A stretch of 64,000 nt of DNA from an uncultured Planctomycetaceae bacterium (lineage in GTDB: Bacteria > Planctomycetota > Planctomycetia > Isosphaerales > Isosphaeraceae): contig CAWIAD010000001.1 of the NCBI GenBank assembly GCA_963833985.1, forward strand, positions 2,080,001-2,144,000. The letters run 5' to 3'. The position numbers were made by a program, and so were the translations under genes. Of the stretch, positions 14,094 through 27,765 are shown piece after piece. The notes under the pieces were generated by a model. That model was given only the letters and a program-made list of their open reading frames with translations, searched no databases and was not told the origin of the DNA. Within the stretch, counting starts at the first letter, position 1. Every line of letters starts with the position of its first letter.

Positions 14094-16181
14094 ATGTTCT
14101 TGCGTTCTGGACATGGTTTTCTTCTTGCCAGTCTCTGCCTCATGAGCATTGTTGCGACGGCCTGTGCGGATGAAGGCATGTGGGTCTTCAACAATCTTCC
14201 GCTCAACACTCTGAAGGCGCGGTATGGCTTCGAGCCGCCAGCCGGCTGGGCCGAGCACCTGAGGTCGGCCGCGGTGCGTTTCAACAATGGTGGATCGGGC
14301 TCGTTCGTATCGGCGGACGGACTGATCATGACGAACCACCATGTCGGTGCGGACACGCTGGCGAAGCTCGGGACCAAGGACAAGGACTATTACCGCGACG
14401 GGTTCTTCGCCAAGAGTTACGACGAGGAGGCCAAGGCCCCCGACCTGGAGCTGAACGTGCTGGTCGGCATCGAGGACGTGACCGGGAAGGTCACCGAGGG
14501 CCTGACCTCCGGAATGGACGACGCGGCCGCCGAGAAGGCGCGGCGCGGGGCGATGGCCCGCATCGAGAAGGAGTCGGCGGAGAAGACGGGGTTGCGCAGC
14601 GATGTGGTGACGCTCTACCAGGGCGGGCAGTACCACTTATACACCTACAAGAAATACACCGATGTCCGGCTCGTCTTCGCGCCCGAGTTCGACGCGGCCT
14701 TCTTCGGCGGTGACCCGGACAACTTCGAGTACCCGCGCTACGATCTGGACATCTGCTTCTTCCGTGCCTACGAGAACGGCAAGCCCGCCCGCCCTCCGCA
14801 TCACCTGAAGTGGAGCAAGAACGGCAGCAAGGAGGGCGACCTCGTCTTCGTGGCCGGCCATCCGGGGCGTACCGATCGCTTGAACACGCACGCGAGCCTG
14901 GAATTCCTGCGAGACGTCTCCTTCCCCGGACTCCTCGATTTCTTGCATACGAAGGAAGCCTTCCTGCTGGAATACGGCAAACGCGGGGCGGAAGCTTACC
15001 GGCAGGCGAAGGAGGACCTGTTCGGCATCCAGAACAGCCGCAAGGCCAGGGTCGGCGGCCTGGGAGGATTGCGCGACGAGACGTTCATGGAGCGCAAGAA
15101 GCAGGCCGAGAAAGAGCTCCGTGCACGGATCGCGGCCGATCCGAAGAAGAAGGAGGCCTACGGAGCGGCGTGGGAGCGAATCGCGGAGGCCCAGAAGTCG
15201 GCCGCCCGGCTGCTCAAGCCGTACAACTTCCTCGAGCGCGGGTTCGCGTTCGATTCAAGGCTCTTCCGGATCGCCCGGGTCCTGGTTCGACTTGCCGACG
15301 AGAAGACAAAGCCCAACTCCGAGCGGCTCAGAGAGTATCGCGAGTCCGGCATGCCGTCCCTGGAGCTGCAACTCTTCTCCGACGCGCCCATCTATCCCGA
15401 ATACGAGGAGGCCAGCCTCACGCAATCGCTGGAATACTGGAAGAAGCACATGCCGGAGCATCCGCTGGTCGAAAGCGTGCTCCACGGACGCCCACCGGCG
15501 GAGGCCGCGCGCGAACTCGTTCGCCACTCGAAGCTGGCCGACATCGCCCTGCGCAAGAAGCTCGCCGAGGGAGGCAAGGCCGCGGTCGAGCAGTGCGATG
15601 ACCCGATGATCAAGCTGGCACTCGCCGTTGATGCGGACGCTCGCGCTGTTCGCAAGGAGCGAGAGGATCTGATCGAAGGGGTGGAAGCCTCGAACTACGC
15701 CCTGATCGCCAAGGCGATCTTCGAGGACCAGGGAGACTCGGTCTATCCCGACGCCACCTTCACGCTCCGCCTGGCGTTTGGCGTGGTCAAGGGATATGAA
15801 GTCGACGGCAAGACGATTCCGGCCTATACGACCATCGCCGGCGCGTTCCAGCACGCCGAAAAGCACGGCAACACGGACCCGTACGCGCTGCCGCGCTCCT
15901 GGCACGAGGCCAGGAAATCGGGCATGCTGAACCTGGAGACCCCGCTCAATTTCGTTTCCACGGCCGACATCATTGGCGGCAACTCCGGCAGCCCGGTCGT
16001 GAACCGCGACAACGAGGTGGTCGGCCTGATCTTCGACGGCAACATCCAGTCGCTGGTCCTCGATTTCGGCTACGACGATCAGGTCGCACGCGCCGTGTCG
16101 GTGGACTCGCGCGGCATCCTGGAGGCGATCCGGAACATCTACCACGCCGAGCGGCTGGTCAAGGAGATCGAGACTCCATAG
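14094..16181 (+). CDS. S46-family dipeptidyl peptidase
   Basis: Signal peptide then ADEGMW; TNHHV; FGGDPDNFEYPR; catalytic DIIGGNSGSPV; GLIFDGN. Confidence 0.93.
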   Translation: MFLRSGHGFLLASLCLMSIVATACADEGMWVFNNLPLNTLKARYGFEPPAGWAEHLRSAAVRFNNGGSGSFVSADGLIMTNHHVGADTLAKLGTKDKDYYRDGFFAKSYDEEAKAPDLELNVLVGIEDVTGKVTEGLTSGMDDAAAEKARRGAMARIEKESAEKTGLRSDVVTLYQGGQYHLYTYKKYTDVRLVFAPEFDAAFFGGDPDNFEYPRYDLDICFFRAYENGKPARPPHHLKWSKNGSKEGDLVFVAGHPGRTDRLNTHASLEFLRDVSFPGLLDFLHTKEAFLLEYGKRGAEAYRQAKEDLFGIQNSRKARVGGLGGLRDETFMERKKQAEKELRARIAADPKKKEAYGAAWERIAEAQKSAARLLKPYNFLERGFAFDSRLFRIARVLVRLADEKTKPNSERLREYRESGMPSLELQLFSDAPIYPEYEEASLTQSLEYWKKHMPEHPLVESVLHGRPPAEAARELVRHSKLADIALRKKLAEGGKAAVEQCDDPMIKLALAVDADARAVRKEREDLIEGVEASNYALIAKAIFEDQGDSVYPDATFTLRLAFGVVKGYEVDGKTIPAYTTIAGAFQHAEKHGNTDPYALPRSWHEARKSGMLNLETPLNFVSTADIIGGNSGSPVVNRDNEVVGLIFDGNIQSLVLDFGYDDQVARAVSVDSRGILEAIRNIYHAERLVKEIETP

Positions 16182-16203
16182 AGCGGTTTGCACCTGGACC
16201 GGA

Positions 16204-16239
16204 GGGCAGGCATTCTCTGGCAGACAGGAATGTCTGCCC
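16204..16239. repeat. REP-like palindrome / possible bidirectional terminator
   Basis: GGGCAGGCATTC (16204-16215) pairs with GAATGTCTGCCC (16228-16239) between convergent genes. Confidence 0.5.
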
Positions 16240-16338
16240 CCCTTCCAAGACCCGTAAACTGCCTGCAACCCTTCAAAAAATGGCTCTGGCAGGTGCTTGT
16301 CGCCGGCCCCTTACCACGGAGTGCCATCGCAATACCGT

Positions 16339-17034
16339 TCACGGCCGCGCGTAGCGCCGGCCTTTCACGTGGATGTCGTCGAACATCCCGGTGTCGTCGA
16401 ACGAGCCGACACCAATCTGGCCGTGGCGGAACGTGCGATCGTGAGCGGTCATCGCGGGGTGATCCATGTCGTCGAAATAGACTTCGACAAGCCCGTCCGC
16501 GACCTTGCGGACGATGCGCACGTGGTGCCAGCCCTCGGTCCACGGAGTGCCGGCCGTGCGCGACCCGGCAATCGAGACGCGCGGGGTGCCGTTGACGATG
16601 AAGATGCTGTTGGCATGCTCGTCAGCTTGCTTGCCGAGATGAACATAATAGAAATGGCTGGCATCCTCGCGGCCGAAGAAGAAGCAGAGGTCGCGGTGGC
16701 CATAGTCGCGGGTCGTGGAGCGCACCTTCACGTCGAGCACGAAGTCGGTCACATCAAGATCATTCGCCAGCGCGATGTTCAGCGGCGAGCGCACCGCGGG
16801 CTCGTACTTGCTCTGCCGGAATTGCTCGAGCACGCGGTTTGACCCGGGCTGGACGGTACTGATACGCCAGGCGGCCGGGTCGGTGAACGTCCATCCGGAG
16901 GGCTCGGCGCGCTCGAAGTTGTCTTGAAGCAGCGGTGCAAGCGGCTCATCGGCATTCAAGGATGCGGCCAGGCCTGCCAGGACGGCAAAGCCGGTGAGGG
17001 CCGTCCGCAGCGAGTGTCGAAAACGGTTCGTCAT
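16339..17034 (-). CDS. Secreted beta-sandwich protein (DUF1080/concanavalin-like)
   Basis: Signal peptide ending LNA-DE; DNFE, WHHVRIVR, GQIGVGSFDD..FDDI pattern. GGAG RBS before ATG 17034. Confidence 0.65.
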   Translation of the reverse strand: MTNRFRHSLRTALTGFAVLAGLAASLNADEPLAPLLQDNFERAEPSGWTFTDPAAWRISTVQPGSNRVLEQFRQSKYEPAVRSPLNIALANDLDVTDFVLDVKVRSTTRDYGHRDLCFFFGREDASHFYYVHLGKQADEHANSIFIVNGTPRVSIAGSRTAGTPWTEGWHHVRIVRKVADGLVEVYFDDMDHPAMTAHDRTFRHGQIGVGSFDDTGMFDDIHVKGRRYARP

Positions 17035-17120: not shown

Positions 17121-17149
17121 TTGACAGCCGCGCTGGCGACTCCTATCAT
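17121..17149 (+). promoter_or_regulatory. Sigma70-type promoter upstream of the cobalamin riboswitch
   Basis: TTGACA (17121-17126), 17-bp spacer, TATCAT (17144-17149). Confidence 0.7.
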
Positions 17150-17164
17150 TCGGAGCGTCCTAGT

Positions 17165-17364
17165 GGTGCTGGTGGCCGGTCCGGTAGCCTGCCGGAACCG
17201 GCGAACAGGGAATCCGGCGCGAATCCGGAACGGCCCCGCCGCTGTGAGCGAGCGCTAAAGAGCGTCTTCCCCTCTTGTTGCCATTGTTGGTCCGGCCCGC
17301 GAGGGATCGGACCGATGAGAAGGCCAGACACTCCAGCTCGCGAGTCAGAAGACCTACCAGCACC
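17165..17364 (+). ncRNA. Cobalamin (B12) riboswitch
   Basis: Closing helix GGTGCTGGT/ACCAGCACC; AACAGGGAATCCGG-CGCGAAT-CCGGAACGGCCCCGCCGCTGTGA core; GCCATTG...GAGAAGGC; B12-box GAGTCAGAAGACCTACC. Confidence 0.9.
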
Positions 17365-17497
17365 CGTACTCGTATCGCTCTGCGCGGGACGAGCGATGCA
17401 GAACCGGTCCCCCCGGAATTCTTCCAGCCTCGGTGGCGCTGTGAATTGCGCCCTCGGGCGAAATTCACGGGGCGGGCACTGGAAGCCGAGGTTCTGA

Positions 17498-17725
17498 ATG
17501 ATGGCGCGCTTCTCGACACGGGCGGGCGCTCGGGCGCTCGTGATGACCGCGCTCGTCGCCGGATCCGCCGCGGTGTGCGGCTGCGGGGCGAGCTCGGCGC
17601 CGAGCGATGGCACGCTCTCCGAAACCGCCCAGAAAGCACTCCTGAAGCGCAAGGTTGATGTTCAGGACCGTCCCGGGCGCAAGCCGCGTCCGCCGGGCTC
17701 GGGCTCCAGACTCCAGGGGCATTGA
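17498..17725 (+). CDS. Small putative lipoprotein (75 aa)
   Basis: Basic N-terminus, hydrophobic stretch and lipobox-like AVCGC; lies between the riboswitch and the DUF1559 gene. Confidence 0.6.
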   Translation: MMARFSTRAGARALVMTALVAGSAAVCGCGASSAPSDGTLSETAQKALLKRKVDVQDRPGRKPRPPGSGSRLQGH

Positions 17726-17755
17726 ATCGCGCCCCGAGAACCAGAAAGGGCCACG

Positions 17756-18937
17756 ATGAGGCTGCATCAAACACTCGCTCGACCGCGTCTCATGGACCGG
17801 CGCGGCCGGGGTTTCACGCTGATTGAACTGCTGGTCGTGATCGCGATCATCGCCGTGCTGATCTCGCTGCTCTTGCCGGCGGTGCAGTCGGCGCGCGAGG
17901 CCGCGCGGCGGGCGCAGTGCGTCAACAATCTCAAGCAGCTCGGGCTGGCCCTGGCCAACTATGAATCCGGTCAGGGAAGCTACCCGTACGGCATGGCACG
18001 CGAGAACACGGGAGCGAACTCGTTCTCGCCCAACGGCTATTACATCGGCAGCAGCGTCTTCGTCCGGCTGCTTCCTTACCTCGAGCAGCAGGTCCTGGCC
18101 AGTTCCTACAATTACAGCTTGACGAACTGGGTTGCCGACAATTCCACCGTGGGAGCGACCGGCCTGTCGGTCTTGTGGTGCCCGAGCGACGGGGCTGTCT
18201 CCGGGCTGCACTTGCAGTTCCCGGGCTGGGGCTGGGACGGCTCGACGCAGATCCTCACCTACACGAGCTACGCCGGATCGATGGGCAACTTCTGCAAGGT
18301 GCCGATCCATGTCATATCAACGTCTCAGCATATGTCTGTGCTAGCGCAGGCCGACGGGCTTTTCTTCTACCTGGGCTGGCCGGGGATCAGCCCCCCCGTG
18401 CAGCCGAACCCGATCGCACCCCAGAATCCCGGCGGGATTCCTCCGGTGCGGCTGGCCTCGGTCACGGATGGGCTCTCGAACACCCTGGCCTTCGGCGAGA
18501 AGGCTCACGGCAAGTTCAGCCAGACCCCGGATGCTTACGGATCAATCGATTATCAGTACAACGGCGCCTGGGTTTCCGGCAACTTCGGCGACACGCTGTT
18601 CACGACGCTCTTCCCGATGAACCCGTTCGGCCGGATCAGCGACGACCCCAACCCCAACGGCGATTTTTTCTACAGCTACGACAACCAGGAAGACAACTTC
18701 TCCATCGCTGCATCGAGCTATCACCCCGGCGGCTGCAACTTCGCGTTCGCGGACGGCTCGGTGCGGTTCCTCAAGGACAGCATCAACTCCTGGCCGTACG
18801 ACCCCGCGACCGGCAAGCCGACCAACGTGGGCTATGACCCGACCACCTGCCTGTTCAGCGTGGCTCCGGCCCCTGGCGTGTACCAGGCGCTCGCCACGCG
18901 CTCCAAGGGAGAGATCATCAGCGCCGATCAGTACTGA
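17756..18937 (+). CDS. DUF1559 prepilin-type N-terminal cleavage/methylation protein (H-X9-DG)
   Basis: [61 protein letters not shown]. Confidence 0.95.
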   Translation: MRLHQTLARPRLMDRRGRGFTLIELLVVIAIIAVLISLLLPAVQSAREAARRAQCVNNLKQLGLALANYESGQGSYPYGMARENTGANSFSPNGYYIGSSVFVRLLPYLEQQVLASSYNYSLTNWVADNSTVGATGLSVLWCPSDGAVSGLHLQFPGWGWDGSTQILTYTSYAGSMGNFCKVPIHVISTSQHMSVLAQADGLFFYLGWPGISPPVQPNPIAPQNPGGIPPVRLASVTDGLSNTLAFGEKAHGKFSQTPDAYGSIDYQYNGAWVSGNFGDTLFTTLFPMNPFGRISDDPNPNGDFFYSYDNQEDNFSIAASSYHPGGCNFAFADGSVRFLKDSINSWPYDPATGKPTNVGYDPTTCLFSVAPAPGVYQALATRSKGEIISADQY

Positions 18938-18977: not shown

Positions 18978-19031
18978 TGTGGGCCAGCCGCCCTCGGCTG
19001 GCTCAGGACGGCCGAGGGCGGCTGTCCCACA
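18978..19031. repeat. REP-like palindrome between convergent genes
   Basis: TGTGGGCCAGCCGCCCTCGGCTG and CGGCCGAGGGCGGCTGTCCCACA form a 23-bp near-perfect stem. Confidence 0.55.
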
Positions 19032-19054: not shown

Positions 19055-20188
19055 TTAGACATCGATCACGTAGATATCGACATCCTTCGTCAGCTTCATG
19101 AGCTGATCGAGCAGCGCCCCGCCCAGGAGCCGCCGGTACCAGGGCCGCCGGCTCTTGCCGATGACGATGACCTTGATGGCGTATTCCCGGGCGAACGCAC
19201 ACATGGTGCTGGCCACGTTCGGACCACGGAACTGCATGGGCAAGCCGCCAAGCTGCTGGGCGAGTTCCAGGTTCTTGCTCAGAATGCGCTGGGTTGCCGC
19301 ATCGATGCGGGTGAGGTCTTCCGAGGGGGTCTGAACGTAGACCGCGTACCAGGGCGCATTGAGCCGGTCGGCAATCCGTGCGGTCTTGCGCAGCAGCGCC
19401 GAGGCGTTCGGGCTGAGGCTCGAGATGCCGACCATGACCCGGTCCGTGGTGGCAATGGGCGCCTGGTCGGCCTCGGCCCTGCGCGTGCGGCGGTCGATCA
19501 GGTGGGCGATCTCGGTGAGCGTGAGCTCGCGCAGCCGCGTGAGGTTGACGGGAGTGAAGAAGTTCTCCAGCGAGGTGTTGATCCGCTCCTCGGGATAGAT
19601 CTTGCCTGTCCTGAGCCGCTCGATCAGGTCCTCGACCGAAACATCGACGTTGACGATCTGGTCGGCGTCGGCCAGGACGCGATCCGGAAATCGCTCCTTG
19701 ACCTTCACGCCGGTGGTGCGTTCGATCTCGTCGTAAAGGCTCTCGAAGTGCTGGATATTCACGGTGGTGATGACATGGATCCCGGCGATGAGCAGGTCTT
19801 CCACGTCCTGGTACCGCTTGGAGTGCTTGCTGCCGGGAACGTTGGTGTGCGCCAACTCGTCCACGAGGCAGACGGTGGGCCTGCGCGCCACGATCGCCTC
19901 CAGATCCATTTCCCTGAGTTGAACGCCGCGGTATTCGATGACGCGCGGGGGGACGATTTCCAGGTCAGCAAGCTGCTCCTGGGTCTCCGCGCGGCCGTGG
20001 GTTTCCACGATGCCGATGACCACGTCAACGCCCTGCTTCTTCAGCCGCTGGCCTTCGCGGAGCATGGCGTAGGTCTTGCCGACACCGGCCGCCGAGCCGA
20101 GATAGACCTTGAGTCGTCCCCGGGCCTGGCGGCGGATCAGGGTGAGGAACTGCTCGGGGGTTGGCCGGGGTGGTTCGGCAACGCTCAT
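19055..20188 (-). CDS. kdpD: Stand-alone KdpD N-terminal sensor + USP domain protein (no TM, no kinase)
   Basis: GRLKVYLGSAAGVGKTYAML, ETHGR, VDELAHTN, KRYQDV, NIQHFES, LRELTL, then a USP-like domain and stop. Confidence 0.88.
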   Translation of the reverse strand: MSVAEPPRPTPEQFLTLIRRQARGRLKVYLGSAAGVGKTYAMLREGQRLKKQGVDVVIGIVETHGRAETQEQLADLEIVPPRVIEYRGVQLREMDLEAIVARRPTVCLVDELAHTNVPGSKHSKRYQDVEDLLIAGIHVITTVNIQHFESLYDEIERTTGVKVKERFPDRVLADADQIVNVDVSVEDLIERLRTGKIYPEERINTSLENFFTPVNLTRLRELTLTEIAHLIDRRTRRAEADQAPIATTDRVMVGISSLSPNASALLRKTARIADRLNAPWYAVYVQTPSEDLTRIDAATQRILSKNLELAQQLGGLPMQFRGPNVASTMCAFAREYAIKVIVIGKSRRPWYRRLLGGALLDQLMKLTKDVDIYVIDV

Positions 20189-20204
20189 GGCCGTACTCCA
20201 CGCC

Positions 20205-20770
20205 TCATTCCGCGGCCTGAAGCTCATCCAGGGCCAGGTTCAGCTTCAGCACGTTGATGCGCGGCGGTGCGCCGATGATCGCCGCAGAGTGATCGGTGTG
20301 GCGAGTGATCAGCGCCGGACCCGTTCATCGGGAAGATGGCGGGCGGCCGCGACGCGTCCTGCCTGGTAGAAGGCGGCCTCCGGGCTGATCTCGGGGTCGA
20401 GGCCGGAGCCCGAGGCCGTCACCAGGTCAACCGGAATGGGGTTTTCCGGGGTGGCCTTGAGCGCCTCCGCCCGCTCGACGACCTTCTTCCGGAGGTCGGG
20501 GTTCCTGGTGCCGAGGTTCGAGCCTCCAGCGGCGTCCGCCTTGTAGTCGACGGCCGAGGGGCGGGGGTGGAAATAACGGTCCGAGGCGAACGGCTGCGCG
20601 ATCAGCTCCGAGCCGATCACGGTGCGATCGCCCCTGAGGATCAGGCTCCCCTCCGCCTGGTGCGGGAAGGCAAGCTGGGCCAGCCCCCACACCACCGTGG
20701 GATAGGCCACGGAACAGAGGATGAAGGAAACGAGGCAAGCCAGCAGGGCTGTGATGGACTCGCGGATCAT
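20205..20770 (-). CDS. kdpC: K+-transporting ATPase subunit C, one frameshift near 20315
   Basis: GSELIAQPF, YFHPRPSA, GGSNLG, DLVTASGSGLDPEIS. The shifted tail reads ALITRHT...PRINVLKLNLALD to a stop at 20205. Confidence 0.9.
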
Positions 20771-20817
20771 GGTCAAGAATTCTCCAGTCCCAGAGCGTTG
20801 AAATGCAAGACCTCGCC

Positions 20818-22959
20818 TCAGCCCATGCCCACAAGGGCGAGCAGCGGGTCGATCAACATGTCGATGAGCTTGATGCCAGCGAACGGCGCGATCACGCCGC
20901 CCAGCCCGTACCAGAGCAGGTTCCTGCGCAGCAATGCCTCGGCACCGACGGGCCGATAGGTCACTCCCTTGAGGGCGATCGGAATGAGCATCGGGATGAT
21001 GACGGCGTTGAAGATCACCGCCGCCAGGATGGCCGAGTACGCTCCGCCGTGGGTCGCCAGGCCCATGATATCCAGGTTTTTGAGCTCAGGGAGTGTGACG
21101 ATGAACATCGCCGGGATCACCGCGAAGTACTTGGCCAGGTCGTTGGCGATGGAAAACGTGGTCAGGGCACCGCGGGTCATGAGCAGTTGCTTGCCGATCT
21201 CGACCACCTCGATGAGCTTCGTCGGGTCGCTGTCGAGATCGACCATGTTGCCGGCTTCCTTCGCGGCCTGGGTGCCGGAATTCATGGCCACGCCGATATC
21301 GGCCTGGGCCAGCGCGGGGGCGTCGTTGGTGCCGTCGCCCATCATCGCCACGAGCTTGCCGCCGTGCTGCTCCTTGCGGATGTAGGCCAGCTTGGCCTCG
21401 GGAGTGGCCTGGGCGATGAAGTCGTCCACGCCCGCCTCCTCGGCGATGGCCTTCGCCGTGAGCGGGTTGTCGCCGGTGACCATGACCACGCGCAGGCCCA
21501 TCTTGCGGAGTCGTGCGAACCGTTCGCGGATCCCCTGCTTGAGGATGTCCTCGAGCTTGACGATCCCCACGAGCCGATCGTTCTCGGCTACCGCCAGCGG
21601 GGTGGCTCCGCGCGAGGCAATAGAATCGACGGTCGGCTGATAGGCCTCCGGGATGGTGCCGCCTTGCTCCTGGATGTAGCGCGCGATCGTATCGGGCGCT
21701 CCCTTGCGAATCCGCGTTCCATCGGGCAGGTCCACTCCGCTCATCCGGGTCTGTGCGGTGAAGTCGATGAACCGGGAGCCGGCCGGAGCCTCGCCATCAA
21801 GAGCGGCTGGCCTGGCCAGGTCGAGGATGCTCTTCCCCTCGGGCGTGATGTCGGCCATGGAGGCCAGCCCAGCCAGCCGTGCCAGATGACGGTCGGACAC
21901 TCCGCCCAGGGGAACAAACTGGGTGGCGCGGCGGTTGCCGATGGTGATCGTGCCAGTCTTGTCCAGCAGCAGGGTGTCGATGTCGCCGGCCAGCTCGACG
22001 GCCTTGCCGCTCTTGGCGATGATGTTCGCCATGAGGGCACGGTCCATCCCCGCGATGCCGATGGCGGCGAGCAGAGCGCCGATGGTCGTCGGGATCAGGC
22101 AGACCAGGAGCGCGATCAAGGTCGGAATGTCGAGGGTCAGCTCGAAGTACCGGGCCATGGGGTAGAGTGCCGCGGTGACGATCAGGAAGATCAGCGAGAA
22201 GGCGGCCAGCACGATGGTCAGGGCAATCTCGTTGGGTGTTTTCTGGCGGATCGCCCCTTCCACGAGGGCGATCATCCGGTCCAGGAAACTCTGGCCCGGT
22301 TCGGAGGTGACCTCGATGATGATACGGTCGGAGAGGACGCGCGTGCCTCCGGTCACCCCGGAGCGGTCGCCGCCGGCTTCGCGGATGACCGGAGCACTCT
22401 CTCCAGTGATCGCGCTTTCATCCACCGATGCCACACCGGCCACCACCTCGCCATCGGCGGGGATGACCTGCCCGGCTTCCACCAGTACAAGGTCGCCGGT
22501 GCGAAGCTGCGTGGACGGAACGAGCTGGCCGTCCTGGGAAGCGAGGCTTTCGATCCGCAGAGCCGGCGTATCCTGTCGGGTCGCACGCAGGCTGTCGGCC
22601 TGGGCCTTGCCGCGCGCTTCGGCCAGGGCCTCCGCGAAATTCGCGAAGAGAACGGTGAGCAAGAGCAGCAGGGTCAGCGCGAACTGATAGACGACGAGCC
22701 CCAGCGCGGCACCGGTGATGATGGACTGCACGGTGACAATGGCCGTGAGCACGGTTCCCACTTCGACCAGGAACATGACAGGATTACGCATCATGGACCG
22801 CGGGTCGAGCATGATGAACGAGCGAACGGTCGCCTGGCGGATCATGTGGGGGTCGAACAGGCCGAGCCGGCGCGCCTGCCGCCTCTGGAGCTTGAACGCC
22901 TGGGCTTCGGCGGCGGAGCGCGGCGAGACCGTGGACTGGGTCGAGACTTCGACGCTCAT
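20818..22959 (-). CDS. kdpB: K+-transporting P-type ATPase subunit B
   Basis: [22 protein letters not shown] phosphorylation motif, [13 protein letters not shown]. Confidence 0.97.
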
Positions 22960-23035
22960 GGGCAAGGTTCCGATGGAAGATGGATGGTGTCAGACCGGGA
23001 AAAGCAGCGGCGCAGTCGGGCTCTCCGGACAGAGC

Positions 23036-24793
23036 TCACGGCGTGATGGCCGACAGGTGGTCTGCCACCGGGCCAAGCACGAGGGCGGGCATGAACGACA
23101 GCGCGCCGACCAGGAGCACGGTCCCGAGCAGCATGCAGGCGAAGGTCAGGTTGTCGGTGCGCAGGGTGCCGGTGGAGTAGGGCACGCGCTTCTTCGCCGC
23201 CAGGAACCCGGCCAGGACGATCGGCAAGACCAGGGCCGGAAATCGGCCCAGCAGCAACACCATTCCCGTGGCGACGTTCCAGGCCGGCGTGTTGTCTCCC
23301 AGGCCTTCAAAGCCGGAGCCGTTATTCGCGGACGCCGATGTGAACTCGTAGAGGATCTCGGAGAAGCCGTGCGCGCCGGGGTTCGCCGTCGCCTTCGCCC
23401 CCCAGTCGGTGGCCGCGAACAGGCCGGCCCCCGCCAGGATCAGCAAAGGATGCATGAGCATCACGATCATGGCGAGCTTGACCTCGCGCGCCTCCACCTT
23501 CTTTCCCAGGTACTCCGGCGTGCGGCCGACCATGAGCCCGGCAAGGAAGACGGCGACGATGATGAACATGAGCATGTTCTCAAACCCGGCACCAATGCCG
23601 CTGAACACCACGTTCAGCATCATCATGGACAAGGGCACGATGCCGGTGATCGGGTTCAAGCTGTCGTGCATGCTATTGACCGAACCGTTGGACGTTCCCG
23701 TGGTCATCGCGGCCCAGGTGGCCGAGGCGACCGGACCCAGCCTGGTTTCCTTGCCTTCCATGTTGGCGCCCTCGGCCACTCCGGAGAGGTTCGCCGTCGC
23801 GGCCGATGGCCTGGTTTCGGCCCAGATGGCCACCGAGGCCCCCACGACCATCAGGCTGAGCATCACGCCGAAGATCACCGCCGCGTGCTTCCGTTCCTTG
23901 AGCATCAGGCCGGCCATCACGATGGACGCCATGGGCAGCATGACAATGAGCGCGATCGATACGAGGTTCGTCCACGGGGTCGGGTTTTCGAATGGATGAG
24001 CCGAGTTGGGCCCGAAGAACCCGCCTCCATTGGTTCCCGCCTGCTTGATCGCCACCAGCGCAGCCACAGGCCCGCGGGCGATGGTTTGCGTCTCCATGCC
24101 GGCGCCTGCACCGTCGATCGTCTGCGCCGGGGCCGCGGCGCTGAAGGTCATGGGCGTGCCCTGGGAGACCAGGAACAGTGACACCACCACGGCGACGGGC
24201 ATGAAGACATAGAGCAGCCCGCGCATCATGTCCAGGTAGAAATCACCCAGGTGCGTGTCACCGCGCAGGCCGCGGATGACCGCGAGCATCGCCGCCAGGC
24301 CCACCGCCGGCGTCACGAACATGAGCCAGACGATGCCACCAAGCTGGCAGAAGTACGAGAGGTGCTGTTCACCGGAGTAATGCTGAAGGTTGGTGTTGGT
24401 GACGAACGAGCAGACCGTATTGAACACGACGGCCGTATCGGCGTCCTTGTGTTCCACTCCCGCGGCATCCTTGTAGCCGAGTGCGCCCAAGGAGCCCTTA
24501 CCGTCAGGGTTCAGCGGCAGGTGCGGCTGCGCGTAGAGCAGGCCGAAAGTGATCACGAAAAGCGCGGCGTTGAAGGTCAGAAGTGCGAAGCAGTACTGCT
24601 TCCAGTTCATCGCCGCGGGCTGCCGCCGGCCGAGCAGCCGGCACAGGAACATCGGCACGGCATCGAGACCGCGTCCGATGCGATCCGGCCGCGGATCGAG
24701 CGCGCGGAACATCGAGTATCCCAGCGGCAACGACGCTGCGATGGGCAATCCGAACGCCCAGAACGGGTGCATCCAGGCATAAGAAGATCCCAC
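23036..24793 (-). CDS. kdpA: K+-transporting ATPase subunit A
   Basis: SFVTNTNLQHYSGE, IKQAGTNGGGFF, NSAHPFENP, SNGSVNSMHDS, SANNGSGF. GAGGAG RBS before GTG. Confidence 0.96.
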   Translation of the reverse strand: MGSSYAWMHPFWAFGLPIAASLPLGYSMFRALDPRPDRIGRGLDAVPMFLCRLLGRRQPAAMNWKQYCFALLTFNAALFVITFGLLYAQPHLPLNPDGKGSLGALGYKDAAGVEHKDADTAVVFNTVCSFVTNTNLQHYSGEQHLSYFCQLGGIVWLMFVTPAVGLAAMLAVIRGLRGDTHLGDFYLDMMRGLLYVFMPVAVVVSLFLVSQGTPMTFSAAAPAQTIDGAGAGMETQTIARGPVAALVAIKQAGTNGGGFFGPNSAHPFENPTPWTNLVSIALIVMLPMASIVMAGLMLKERKHAAVIFGVMLSLMVVGASVAIWAETRPSAATANLSGVAEGANMEGKETRLGPVASATWAAMTTGTSNGSVNSMHDSLNPITGIVPLSMMMLNVVFSGIGAGFENMLMFIIVAVFLAGLMVGRTPEYLGKKVEAREVKLAMIVMLMHPLLILAGAGLFAATDWGAKATANPGAHGFSEILYEFTSASANNGSGFEGLGDNTPAWNVATGMVLLLGRFPALVLPIVLAGFLAAKKRVPYSTGTLRTDNLTFACMLLGTVLLVGALSFMPALVLGPVADHLSAITP

Positions 24794-24824
24794 AAATCAC
24801 TCCTCTTGTGCAAATGGCTGTGAG

Positions 24825-24905
24825 TCAGAACCGTTCCGGCCGCAGCATGGCGTAGACGAGGTACACCAGGGCCGCCACGGTGACAAGCGCGGTGACATAG
24901 AGCAC
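24825..24905 (-). CDS. kdpF: KdpF micro-subunit (26 aa)
   Basis: MLYVTALVTVAALVYLVYAMLRPERF with the YLxYAxxxPERF motif; GGGAGAG RBS; directly upstream of kdpA. Confidence 0.9.
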   Translation of the reverse strand: MLYVTALVTVAALVYLVYAMLRPERF

Positions 24906-24924
24906 GTCGATCTCTCCCGGGAAA

Positions 24925-25005
24925 CTAGAGCCGGTCGCACGCGGCGACCAGGCCGAAAAAGAGCCCGAACAGCAGCATTCCAAGGGCAAACGTCGCAATG
25001 GCCAA
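24925..25005 (-). CDS. Second hydrophobic micro-peptide upstream of kdpF (26 aa)
   Basis: TTG start with an AGGAG RBS 7 nt upstream: MAIATFALGMLLFGLFFGLVAACDRL*. One TM helix. Confidence 0.7.
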   Translation of the reverse strand: MAIATFALGMLLFGLFFGLVAACDRL

Positions 25006-25189
25006 GGTACGTCTCCTGAGAAGGGCCTTGAGGGTTCAAGAGACCCACGCGGGCCGTTTCCAAGCACCAGAAACGGGACAGAACAGTGATCTCGGCCGGG
25101 ACTGCGGCTGCGGCCAGCGCATGTTCTGGCGATCCCCGGAAGTCGGCGTCGATCCCGCTTCGGCAATCGCCAGTCGCCAGGCCCGAACG

Positions 25190-25813
25190 CTACATTTGCA
25201 GCAGCTCTCCGACGGCACGGAACGAGAAGGTGTCAGGGTGCAGTCGGCAGGACTGAAGTGCCTGACGCAGCTTCTGCACCTGCGGCGTGCCCGGCCGGAG
25301 GCTGTCCGACACACGCAGGAAGAACTCGGCATCGTCGAACTCGCGGCGCTCCAGAGCCAGCCGGCAACGCCTGAGGTTCTCCTCGAACAGGGCGCTTGGA
25401 CCAGGAGGTACCGGCTCCTGCCGATCCAGAGCGTGCCGGGTCGCGGCCCGGGCGCAGGCCTGGGCGGTGACGGACCGCAGCGTGGTCGGGCTGATGGGCT
25501 TGGGCAAGAAATCCAGGGCACCGAGCTTCATCGCCGCCACGGCGTCGGGAACGCTGCCGTGCGCCGTGATGATGATTACCGGTGTATCGTCGCCGGCATC
25601 ACGCAGCCGCGCCAGGGTCTCCATGCCGCAGGCCCTGGGCATCTTCAGATCGAGCAAGATCAGATCGGTCGGCACCTGACGAAGCTGCTCGAGCGCCTCG
25701 TCGCCGTCGCCCGCCTCGGTCACCTGGTACCCGATCGCTTCCAGGGCGGTCCGGAAGACGAGCCGGACATTGGGCTCATCATCCACGATCAGGATTCGTT
25801 GGCTCGTATCCAT
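25190..25813 (-). CDS. Response regulator, receiver plus short helical C-terminal domain
   Basis: ILIVDDE, LLDLKMP, ITAHG, FLPKP; no evident DNA-binding HTH. Confidence 0.88.
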   Translation of the reverse strand: MDTSQRILIVDDEPNVRLVFRTALEAIGYQVTEAGDGDEALEQLRQVPTDLILLDLKMPRACGMETLARLRDAGDDTPVIIITAHGSVPDAVAAMKLGALDFLPKPISPTTLRSVTAQACARAATRHALDRQEPVPPGPSALFEENLRRCRLALERREFDDAEFFLRVSDSLRPGTPQVQKLRQALQSCRLHPDTFSFRAVGELLQM

Positions 25814-25838
25814 GGACTCGCCTGCATCCTCCCCTGAA

Positions 25839-27734
25839 TCAAACCTGGCTCACGGTGAGCCGGTTCTGGCCGGACATCCCGGTCCCGTCCTGCTCTTCCA
25901 TGGCCGCCGGCAGACTGAACGTGAAGGTCGTCCCCTTGCCGAGCGTGCTCTGAACTTCGATCTGACCGCCGTGGGCGACGATGATCTCGTGCACGATCGC
26001 CAGCCCGAGCCCGGCCCCACCCTGGTGCCTTGCCCCGGGCGCACGGAAAAACTTGTCAAAGACGCGCGGCAGGAACTGTGCGGGAATGCCCTCGCCGCTG
26101 TCTTCCACCGTGAACCGTACCTGGCCTGGCTGCACGGCTGCCGCCCGCAAGGTGATGGTCCCCCCGCGTCCGGTATGCCGCAGCGCGTTGGTCATGAGGT
26201 TGTCGAAGACGTGCTGGATCCGCTCCCCGTCCACCAGGACCTGGGACAGATGCGGATCGAGCTGCGTCCGCAGCGTGATCCCTGCGTCCTGTGCTGCCGG
26301 CCTGTGCCGTTCGAGCGCATCGCTGACCAGCGACTCGGCGGCGGCCGGTTGCTGCTCGAGCGCCACGCGCCCCTGCTCGATCCGGGTCAGGTCAAGCAGA
26401 TCATTGATCATGCCCAGCAGCCGGTCAGAATCTTGCCGCGCCGCCAGGAGCAACTCCGTCTGCTTGGGCGAGAGCGGCCCCACCGCCTCCTCGAGCAGCA
26501 AGTGGACGACCATTTGCAAGCTGGTCAGAGGCGTCTTCAGCTCGTGGCTGACGGTCGAGATCATGTCGCTCTTGAGCTGATCCAGGAGATGGAACTTCGT
26601 GACGTCGGAAAGCACGACCGCGGCACCGAGCAGCTCTCCCGAGTCGCTGCGGATCCGCAGCACGCGCGGCAGAAAATAGCGGTCCTGGTTGCCGTCGCGG
26701 AGAAACATCGCCTGTTCCAGGCTCAGCGGGAGGTAGTCTGCCTGACCCTGGAGCACGGAATCGAGATGCGCCTTGAGCGCCGGCGGGGCGATCCAGGGCA
26801 ACGCCTCTCCCGCCGCATCGGGCATGACTTGCAGGAGCCTTCTGGCAGCCGGGTTGGCGCGCTCCACGCCTCCCTGGAGATCGACCACGACGACGGGATC
26901 GGGGAACGAGTCGATCGTGGCCTGAGCCGTCTTCTGGGCCCGCAGGAGGCGCAGCGTCCCCGCTTCGCGGTACTCACGAACCGTCCGGGCCATGGTATTG
27001 AACGCCTGACCCAGCTCTCCCAGCTCATCCTGGGTCGTCGCGGGCACCACCTGGTTCAGGTTTCCCTGCGCCACGGCACGCGCGGCCTGGGTCACGGCCA
27101 CGATCGGTTCCAGGATCAGCCGCGTGAGCACCCGCGCCGAGGCAATCGCCAGGCCGACGGCCACCAGCAGCGCCGTGATCATCAACCGGGTGGAACTGGC
27201 CGCGTTTCGAAGTGCCTGCTCGTTCATCTCTTCCATGTTGCGCTGGTTCAGGAACAGGACGCGGTCCTCAAGCTTGCGAAGGTTTTCAAACCGGGGGAGG
27301 AGCCTCGCGAAATAAAGGTCGGCCCGGTCGGCGGTGGTGGTGTTCCCCACCAGCCTGAAGTAGTCGTCGGCCTGCTTGAGATACTCCTGGTACTCGGCTG
27401 TCAGTTCGGCAACGAGTTCACGCTCGCCGGGAACCGTGATGTTGTTCTGCTCCACCTGGAGCTGGCGTTCGAATTCCTCCTTCGACCTGTCGAACGAATC
27501 GCGAGCGTGGCCATACCGCCCACTGAAGGAAAACATGAGCGCTGAGTCCATCCGCTCGAGTGCTTCTTTCATCCGTTCCACGGCAATCACGCTGCGGTAG
27601 TTCTCACGCAGGATCACGTCGATACTGCCTCCCAGTCCGTAGAACATGGCAATGGCCCAGAGCCCAAGGCCGATGAGGATTGCCAGCAACGGCAGGAAGC
27701 CAAACAGCAGCTTCAGTCGCAACGTTTTGAACAT
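25839..27734 (-). CDS. HAMP/PAS sensor histidine kinase (KinB-like)
   Basis: Two TMs around a helical sensor domain, HAMP (DELGELGQAFN), PAS, H-box SHELKTPL, N/G boxes (NLMTNA, DSGEG, GAGLGL). Confidence 0.92.
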   Translation of the reverse strand: MFKTLRLKLLFGFLPLLAILIGLGLWAIAMFYGLGGSIDVILRENYRSVIAVERMKEALERMDSALMFSFSGRYGHARDSFDRSKEEFERQLQVEQNNITVPGERELVAELTAEYQEYLKQADDYFRLVGNTTTADRADLYFARLLPRFENLRKLEDRVLFLNQRNMEEMNEQALRNAASSTRLMITALLVAVGLAIASARVLTRLILEPIVAVTQAARAVAQGNLNQVVPATTQDELGELGQAFNTMARTVREYREAGTLRLLRAQKTAQATIDSFPDPVVVVDLQGGVERANPAARRLLQVMPDAAGEALPWIAPPALKAHLDSVLQGQADYLPLSLEQAMFLRDGNQDRYFLPRVLRIRSDSGELLGAAVVLSDVTKFHLLDQLKSDMISTVSHELKTPLTSLQMVVHLLLEEAVGPLSPKQTELLLAARQDSDRLLGMINDLLDLTRIEQGRVALEQQPAAAESLVSDALERHRPAAQDAGITLRTQLDPHLSQVLVDGERIQHVFDNLMTNALRHTGRGGTITLRAAAVQPGQVRFTVEDSGEGIPAQFLPRVFDKFFRAPGARHQGGAGLGLAIVHEIIVAHGGQIEVQSTLGKGTTFTFSLPAAMEEQDGTGMSGQNRLTVSQV

Positions 27735-27765
27735 GCTCTTGCTCGTCACATCGAGACCCATTCAA

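Follow-up and report, generated by a model that had tools for sequence, protein, structure and literature searches.

A gene for a prepilin-type protein of the DUF1559 family was found behind a cobalamin riboswitch in the window, the whole 64,000-nt stretch of planctomycete DNA that was analyzed, and comparison of sequences makes its membership of the B12 regulon well supported. Among 121 genomes of the same family, 26 orthologues of this gene (lineage A, at least 72.9% identity) were detected and a switch was located upstream of 25 of them. No switch preceded any of the four sister paralogues (57-58% identity) in these genomes or any of 68 more distant paralogues, so the pairing is not due to chance. 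Few paralogue families of planctomycetes are as large as DUF1559. The accessible parts of earlier reports describe it as an expanded family of unknown or putatively solute-binding function (PMC10632474, PMC8567305, PMC2754498, PMC4807772, PMC5352709), and 68 paralogues, two of them essential, are given for P. limnophila in the available text of PMC10632474. With the riboswitch come the name of a ligand, a condition for induction and a way to select by growth, and the function of the family thereby becomes directly testable. The pairing also touches the question of how planctomycetes, with TonB receptors few or lacking, take up large solutes.

The riboswitch-led unit

The features of the unit, in window positions, are the following.

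17121..17149, + strand: sigma-70-type promoter-like site, TTGACA-17-TATCAT; the -35 box is kept in 12 aligned leaders
17153..17375, + strand: cobalamin riboswitch aptamer RF00174, full length (86.1 bits, E 8e-20)
17372..17399, + strand: P13-like hairpin (predicted fold) with a CGCGGGAC-like core conserved among orthologues
17426..17494, + strand: window-specific leader structure (predicted fold) enclosing the hairpin at 17441-17468; candidate translational expression platform
17498..17725, + strand: predicted lipoprotein, 75 aa, with a lipobox (Cys29), a short helix and a tail of basic residues; type generic among DUF1559 partners
17756..18937, + strand: DUF1559/H-X9-DG prepilin-type protein of lineage A, 393 aa
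18722-18757, + strand: H-X9-DG motif of the 393-aa protein
18985..19024, no strand: 14-bp perfect inverted repeat, read from the sequence, between the unit and a convergent KdpD-domain gene

An earlier note on this DNA had described a near-consensus promoter and a complete B12 riboswitch, and both were borne out. The promoter at 17121-17149 matched the consensus at 11 of 12 positions (the promoter scan gave 2 sites against 0.3 expected), and TTGAC was invariant across 12 aligned orthologous leaders. The Rfam match spanned model positions 1-189 and exceeded the gathering cut-off of 31.5 bits. By this full-length covariance-model match the element is a cobalamin riboswitch, for which ligand binding and B12-dependent repression are predicted. 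The loop of the P13-like hairpin, TGCGC, is complementary to the L5 loop region in the window and in most orthologues, a deviant L5 being present in the orthologous leaders L088 and L048; the two loops presumably pair as a kissing loop. Orthologous leaders vary in length and sequence, and the aptamer, the P13 core, the -35 box and the Gly-Cys of the lipoprotein were all conserved across the 12 that were aligned.

The hairpin reported downstream of the riboswitch, at 17441-17468, is real in terms of predicted stability (-12.9 kcal/mol, without a U-tract), but it is not a conserved control element of the orthologous leaders. Neither the hairpin nor the structure enclosing it was conserved in the 12 aligned leaders, and the hairpin is therefore specific to the window. 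It was not among the terminator calls of the scan, and this together with the lack of conservation rules out a conserved terminator. In the predicted fold of 17424-17500 (-34.8 kcal/mol), CCTCGG pairs with CCGAGG, the latter containing GAGG, the ribosome-binding site for the lipoprotein. Since this larger stem would hide the GAGG before the lipoprotein start, translational control of the lipoprotein gene is plausible in the window. An upstream 33-aa ORF (17396-17497, + strand) runs from the 3' edge of the P13 hairpin to a stop immediately before the lipoprotein start; it was rejected as a functional element because its start codon is not conserved in orthologues.

The 75-aa ORF gave no Pfam match. 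Its frame, the Gly-Cys lipobox and a KxKVDV-like stretch all recur in orthologues, Gly28-Cys29 being invariant in five aligned lipoprotein sequences and present in further orthologues. With a hydrophobic signal ending in a conserved lipobox cysteine, the product is classed as a lipoprotein and its lipidation is predicted. The lipoprotein-like ORF of the earlier note is accordingly present with its lipobox kept in orthologues, but it is not a B12-specific component: a lipoprotein-type neighbour was found, using a crude filter, beside 20 of 74 host DUF1559 paralogues as compared with 4 of 299 control genes, which makes the lipoprotein a generic DUF1559 partner. This agrees with the available text of PMC8567305, in which DUF1559 genes typically adjoin signal-peptide genes.

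The 393-aa ORF matched PF07963, PF07596 (E 3e-49) and TIGR04294, all above the curated cut-offs, which confirms the prepilin-type gene seen earlier and makes the protein a member of the DUF1559/SBP_bac_10/H-X9-DG family. NCBI labels the orthologue P0016 as 'DUF1559 family PulG-like putative transporter'. The protein carries a class III signal, judged from a predicted prepilin cleavage site at Gly19/Phe20, a Glu at +5 and a long N-terminal helix. The His, Asp and Gly of the H-X9-DG motif were invariant in 97 sequences, and the cleavage motif and Glu5 are invariant as well. The unit contains only two genes, as had been noted: the DUF1559 gene is followed by the inverted repeat at 18985-19024, likely the end of the transcript, and then by the convergent KdpD-domain gene. 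A Kdp potassium-uptake-like cluster, for which the Pfam check covered the KdpD domain only, occupies 19055-27761 on the - strand; it includes a KdpD sensor/Usp gene that stands alone, besides a kinase and a response regulator that are separate from it. Several relatives of the same genus share with the window, in synteny with the switch, the two genes at 14094-17034, one for an S46 peptidase and one, divergent, for a secreted protein that has no Pfam match.

The model of the 393-aa protein (pLDDT 89.5) showed an N-terminal helix of 52 residues (8-59). Pilins made up 16 of its 17 fold matches in VIA, with weak Z scores of at most 3.9, and PilA4 aligned with an rmsd of 3.3 over 119 residues; the matched residues run from the helix to the H-X9-DG strands. 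A lineage-B model gave a Z score of 5.4 against pilins. Foldseek returned nothing at E up to 0.001 for the model of the 393-aa protein, and the pilin helix was the only part matched in a sequence search of the PDB. BtuJ, BtuG, BtuF and other B12-binding folds were absent from the fold matches listed, and neither ORF of the unit matched the Pfam families of BtuJ (DUF4465), BtuF or BtuG. On these models the protein probably has the core of a pilin, into which a large region differing from paralogue to paralogue is inserted. Met, Tyr and Trp residues typical of the lineage were noted, but they do not point to a binding site, since many of them are common to the switch-less sister group and no lineage-specific invariant His was found. 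A likeness to glycyl-radical domains, seen in ESM Atlas leads below 0.9 only, was rejected.

Recurrence and lineages of the pairing

The pairing was surveyed from the side of the switch using all 55 over-cut-off cobalamin switches in 41 genomes of the class Planctomycetia. A pairing was counted when a same-strand DUF1559 ORF started within 1.3 kb. Of the 55 switches, 38 preceded a DUF1559 gene, in 33 of the 38 switch-bearing genomes, and two negatives reach to within 500 nt of the edge of their contig. DUF1559 genes account for about one gene in 100 in the host (74-103 ORFs, the gene total being estimated from genome size). A further 37 switches, 17 supplied with their loci and 20 hand-picked with weight on families f1 and f3, gave 23 pairings. 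Recurrence in related genomes, for which the earlier note had suggested a survey, is thereby found both among switches and among orthologues.

From the side of the protein, 75 loci retrieved with the protein of the window were inspected. A switch was present at all seven loci with 71-79% identity (two of them duplicates of other loci in the survey) and at none of the 68 with 58% identity or less (five of which had less than 900 nt upstream). In the 25 switch-linked orthologues of the 121 family genomes, which span 12 genera with differing neighbours, the switch lies 339-723 nt upstream, and Rfam agreed on the 20 loci given. The orthologue search misses frameshifted copies; three frameshifted lineage-A copies, seen separately, likewise carry the switch. 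A metagenome scan of 79 prepilin loci found the switch in three, which took ranks 1, 2 and 4 when ordered by similarity to lineage B, and in none of the other 53 loci with at least 600 nt upstream. None of 12 TPP riboswitches in 61 genomes preceded a DUF1559 gene, and the two that were tested by Pfam lead thiC.

The single orthologue without a switch was found in genome G004, where an intact copy of 80% identity is kept together with its lipoprotein gene. The two genes start 15 nt behind the S46 peptidase gene that the window and several relatives have upstream of the switch, and the promoter and switch appear to have been deleted. G004 carries one switch on a lineage-C gene and another on a DUF4465 gene. 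This case contradicts a strict linkage, and one system seems at the same time to have been replaced by another.

An even sample of the phylum was taken, in which 89 of more than 200 switch matches were examined in order of score, about one per genome. TonB receptors were 20 of 88 first genes behind the switch. Outside Planctomycetia, a DUF1559-type gene was first in 2 of 85 loci and present within the 1-3 kb available in 8; the arrangement is thus typical of Planctomycetia and not of the phylum. Outside the class (L164, L201, L212, L237, L235 and others), switches lead clusters of 14, 12, 7 and 5 members encoding secreted-looking proteins of about 300-650 aa with little or no Pfam match, which are candidates for new B12-binding surface families. 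Cobalamin switches also precede ATP-cone ribonucleotide reductase genes in L187, L406 and L424, as expected for B12-independent isozymes, and metE in L074, L423 and L425.

Trees were built with FastTree (186 rows) and with IQ-TREE (53 rows, pilin helix left out). The switch-linked genes fell into three groups (A, B and C) and three singletons, with lineage A nested in a well-supported subfamily that includes five switch-less host paralogues. The linked paralogues do not form the one clade that had been considered: under the LG+G4 model, with groups named after seeing a tree, A and C as a single clade were rejected (p-AU 0.004), and A and B as a single clade were not (p-AU 0.20). The profiles of A and B align over 76 N-terminal columns only. 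Switch linkage is present in at least two separate lineages (A and C). Repeated recruitment of DUF1559 to the switch would be the simpler reading of these trees, which are unrooted and in which gain and loss are indistinguishable.

B12 genes of the host and partners of the switch

The host genome (G000; 10.16 Mb, 2 contigs, 96% complete) contains 103 ORFs matching a DUF1559 profile, fragments included, 74 of them with a prepilin motif. About a dozen of the paralogues are frameshift-split, probably by sequencing errors; the copy in the window is intact. Close orthologues carry the Isosphaeraceae label from their sources. A look-up of sequencing runs listed none, a result that carries no weight here. 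Nine matches to B12-binding domains were found, one of them within a foreign segment, and by reading of their sequences these ORFs include MetH-, mutase- and radical-SAM-like types. The second over-cut-off cobalamin switch of the host sits in the last 150 kb of contig 1. This region (G000:C1:3360000-3511121, L004) has a tetranucleotide make-up unlike the rest and alphaproteobacteria-like genes, and is possibly a chimeric assembly join. As the DNA around the second switch is foreign in composition and sits at the end of a contig, the switch of the window is probably the only native one of the host.

Profile searches of the 96% complete genome found no TonB barrel or plug (PF00593, PF07715), no CbiC and no DUF4465 (PF14717). 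By tblastn there was no match for BluB, CobN, CobQ, CobO, CobT, CobS, CobC, CobU or BtuB, nor, with one query, for a BtuC-like permease, and the PEP-CTERM-type partner proteins tried gave no match. A plug and beta-barrel receptor under riboswitch control, the mark of a BtuB-type system, is by these searches absent from the host. The uptake route had been proposed to be independent of BtuB, and as far as a missing BtuB is concerned this holds. The TonB plug was also missing from all 121 family genomes, and its absence is therefore not specific to B12. A DUF6580 gene and a BtuF-like gene are present in the host, unlinked to the unit and without a switch. Three PilT matches over cut-off, several PilB/GspE-type ATPases, one prepilin peptidase and three secretins were found as well; with this machinery at hand, cleavage of the 393-aa protein by prepilin peptidase and its incorporation into a filament are predicted.

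In genome G006, the orthologue heads bluB-like, cobQ, cobO, cobT, cobS, cobC, cobU, btuF/C/D-like and cobD genes, with cobT, cobS, cobC and cobU identified via close counterparts in G011. The 3' fragment of a second lineage-A gene closes this cob/btu operon (L279:18539-19069), like an insertion with partial duplication. Other switch-linked DUF1559 genes precede DUF4465-PEP-CTERM, DUF6580, BtuF/FecCD or CobN genes. A Pfam-less family of 280-340 aa with a PEP-CTERM-like tail (L061:2009-2869, L072:5199-6026, L073:4892-5908 and L083:6997-7848) adjoins switch-controlled DUF1559 and DUF4465 genes. DUF6580, BtuF-like and diphthine-ligase-like (PF01902) proteins recur in various combinations under cobalamin switches (L049, L034, L064, L422), the BtuF-like protein of L049 being accompanied by DUF5522; the PF01902 protein is possibly an enzyme of corrinoid salvage not recognised so far.

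Lineage A and DUF4465/BtuJ almost exclude each other. DUF4465 was found in 69 of the 121 family genomes, namely in 2 of 26 lineage-A carriers (one being G004) as against 67 of 95 others, and CbiC in 19 of the 121 and in none of the 26 carriers; a good many of these genomes are incomplete, and related ones do not count as independent. The contrast between lineage A and DUF4465 is visible inside four genera (g1, g12, g158 and g178). A similar pattern was seen for TonB receptors in family f3 (11 genomes), in which the switch stands immediately before a TonB plug gene in seven. Both plug-less genomes, which were fetched as a prediction, show the switch on a DUF1559 gene. Of the remaining two, G304 has unlinked receptors plus a switch-DUF1559 pair, and G307 has a TonB receptor and no switch was found in it. 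One of the seven, G298, has both arrangements. In eight genomes from other families the switch is on DUF1559 even though a TonB barrel match occurs elsewhere.

Proposed role of the prepilin

Since 25 of 26 orthologues keep the pairing and the searches turned up no standard outer-membrane importer for B12, the pilin likely captures the vitamin. The reading preferred here, at slightly better than an even chance, is that it would be a corrinoid-capture subunit assembled into a retractable type IV pilus or pseudopilus and doing the outer-membrane job of BtuB. In the model of uptake by pilus retraction, a minor pilin captures the ligand first. At low B12 the switch would permit expression, and at high B12 the L5-L13 kissing loop would favour the fold that hides the ribosome-binding site. 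Prepilin peptidase would cut at Gly/Phe, the pilin core (N-terminal helix and H-X9-DG strands) would join a filament and the large inserted region would form the ligand site. Retraction driven by PilT through a secretin could then carry the corrinoid to the periplasm, where the unlinked BtuF-like and DUF6580 proteins may hand it on to the cytoplasm; for the lipoprotein, the part of a generic chaperone or adaptor is proposed. Import of a vitamin by such a pilus route, if it holds, is not known to have a precedent. In the part of the proteome study at hand, DUF1559-type proteins occur in membrane fractions and filaments are not demonstrated (PMC8567305).

That fractionation would also suit a corrinoid binder that its pilin helix keeps in the inner membrane, serving as periplasmic feeder of DUF6580- or BtuFCD-type importers, with B12 crossing the outer membrane by another way. 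All of the linkage evidence fits this alternative equally well. The head domain of the model is large for a filament subunit, the short name in Pfam is SBP_bac_10 and the domain is termed a solute-binding family in the accessible portion of PMC2754498. It is nevertheless considered unlikely: BtuF-like proteins are already present in such operons and in the host, the DUF1559 gene occupies the position of btuB and not that of btuF, and the cleavage motif and Glu5 are invariant. Taken jointly with the preferred reading, a role in corrinoid capture is likely.

The absence of CbiC from all 26 carriers would also be in line with an adhesin-type minor pilin that is made at low B12 and attaches the cell to B12-producing neighbours without binding the vitamin. 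Modular minor pilins are reported to be able to serve adhesion (PMC8179133). This is improbable, as the operon partners are import and salvage genes and an either/or relation with btuB and DUF4465 suits a transport step better. A very improbable reading is that of a cargo-specific pseudopilin aiding type II secretion of B12-scavenging surface proteins such as PEP-CTERM DUF4465. The N-terminus is similar to GspG/PulG and lineage-C genes adjoin DUF4465-PEP-CTERM genes, but 24 of 26 lineage-A genomes, the host included, gave no DUF4465 match, the host gave none to the PEP-CTERM-type partners tried and the operon of the window holds no cargo gene. The earlier note had left room for capture of cobalt, to which one switch-DUF1559 gene preceding cobN, another preceding a cobN fragment and the lineage-typical Met residues could point. 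With CbiC missing in 26 of 26 carriers and CobN in the host, there would be no way to insert free cobalt into a corrin ring, and capture of cobalt ions instead of corrinoids is highly improbable for lineage A. A passenger gene that landed behind an orphan riboswitch is scarcely credible: there are about 100 paralogous ORFs per genome and one orthologue persists without the switch, but the link is kept in 25 of 26 orthologues across 12 genera with differing neighbours and recurs in at least two separate lineages.

The proposed capture pilin resembles several known systems. With the btuB leader, which controls the TonB-dependent receptor BtuB working with BtuFCD, it shares the riboswitch family and the first-gene position, and switches of this family lead TonB receptor genes in f3 and in the wider phylum; in contrast, the controlled protein of the window is a prepilin with neither barrel nor plug. 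The accessible parts of two reports on the Bacteroides relay BtuJ1/J2 (DUF4465), BtuG and BtuH (PMC13398666; bioRxiv 2025.07.01.662609) likewise describe riboswitch-regulated envelope proteins that capture B12, and it is there that DUF4465 proteins are found to bind B12. The position of DUF4465 genes beside lineage-C DUF1559 genes is a further likeness. As far as these texts go the relay ends at BtuB, whereas nearly all genomes with lineage A gave no DUF4465 match. The prepilin motif and the putative pilin-like core are common to DNA uptake by type IV pili with the receptor pilin ComP and to the type II pseudopilins PulG/GspG, and ComP, PilV, EpsG and PilA4 were among the fold matches of the DUF1559 models. 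The differences lie in the proposed cargo, a vitamin, in a head about 240 residues larger and in the riboswitch control.

Lineage A differs from the rest of the DUF1559 family in its cobalamin riboswitch; in the portions of literature consulted no ligand or regulator is assigned to the family. In literature searches that took in few subscription papers, none of the papers covered contained both DUF1559 and cobalamin and no report of a link was found; riboswitch-survey tables could list the gene as hypothetical. The link is not mentioned in the accessible part of PMC2667541. A broader proposal, tentative and possible rather than probable, is that Planctomycetia bring scarce solutes across the outer membrane by a set of interchangeable DUF1559 pilin receptors on retractable pili, in place of TonB receptors, that B12 uptake was passed to this scaffold at least twice independently and that lineage A is a self-sufficient B12 receptor replacing BtuB plus BtuJ. 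If true, the about 100 DUF1559 paralogues found in a genome would correspond in function to a repertoire of TonB receptors.
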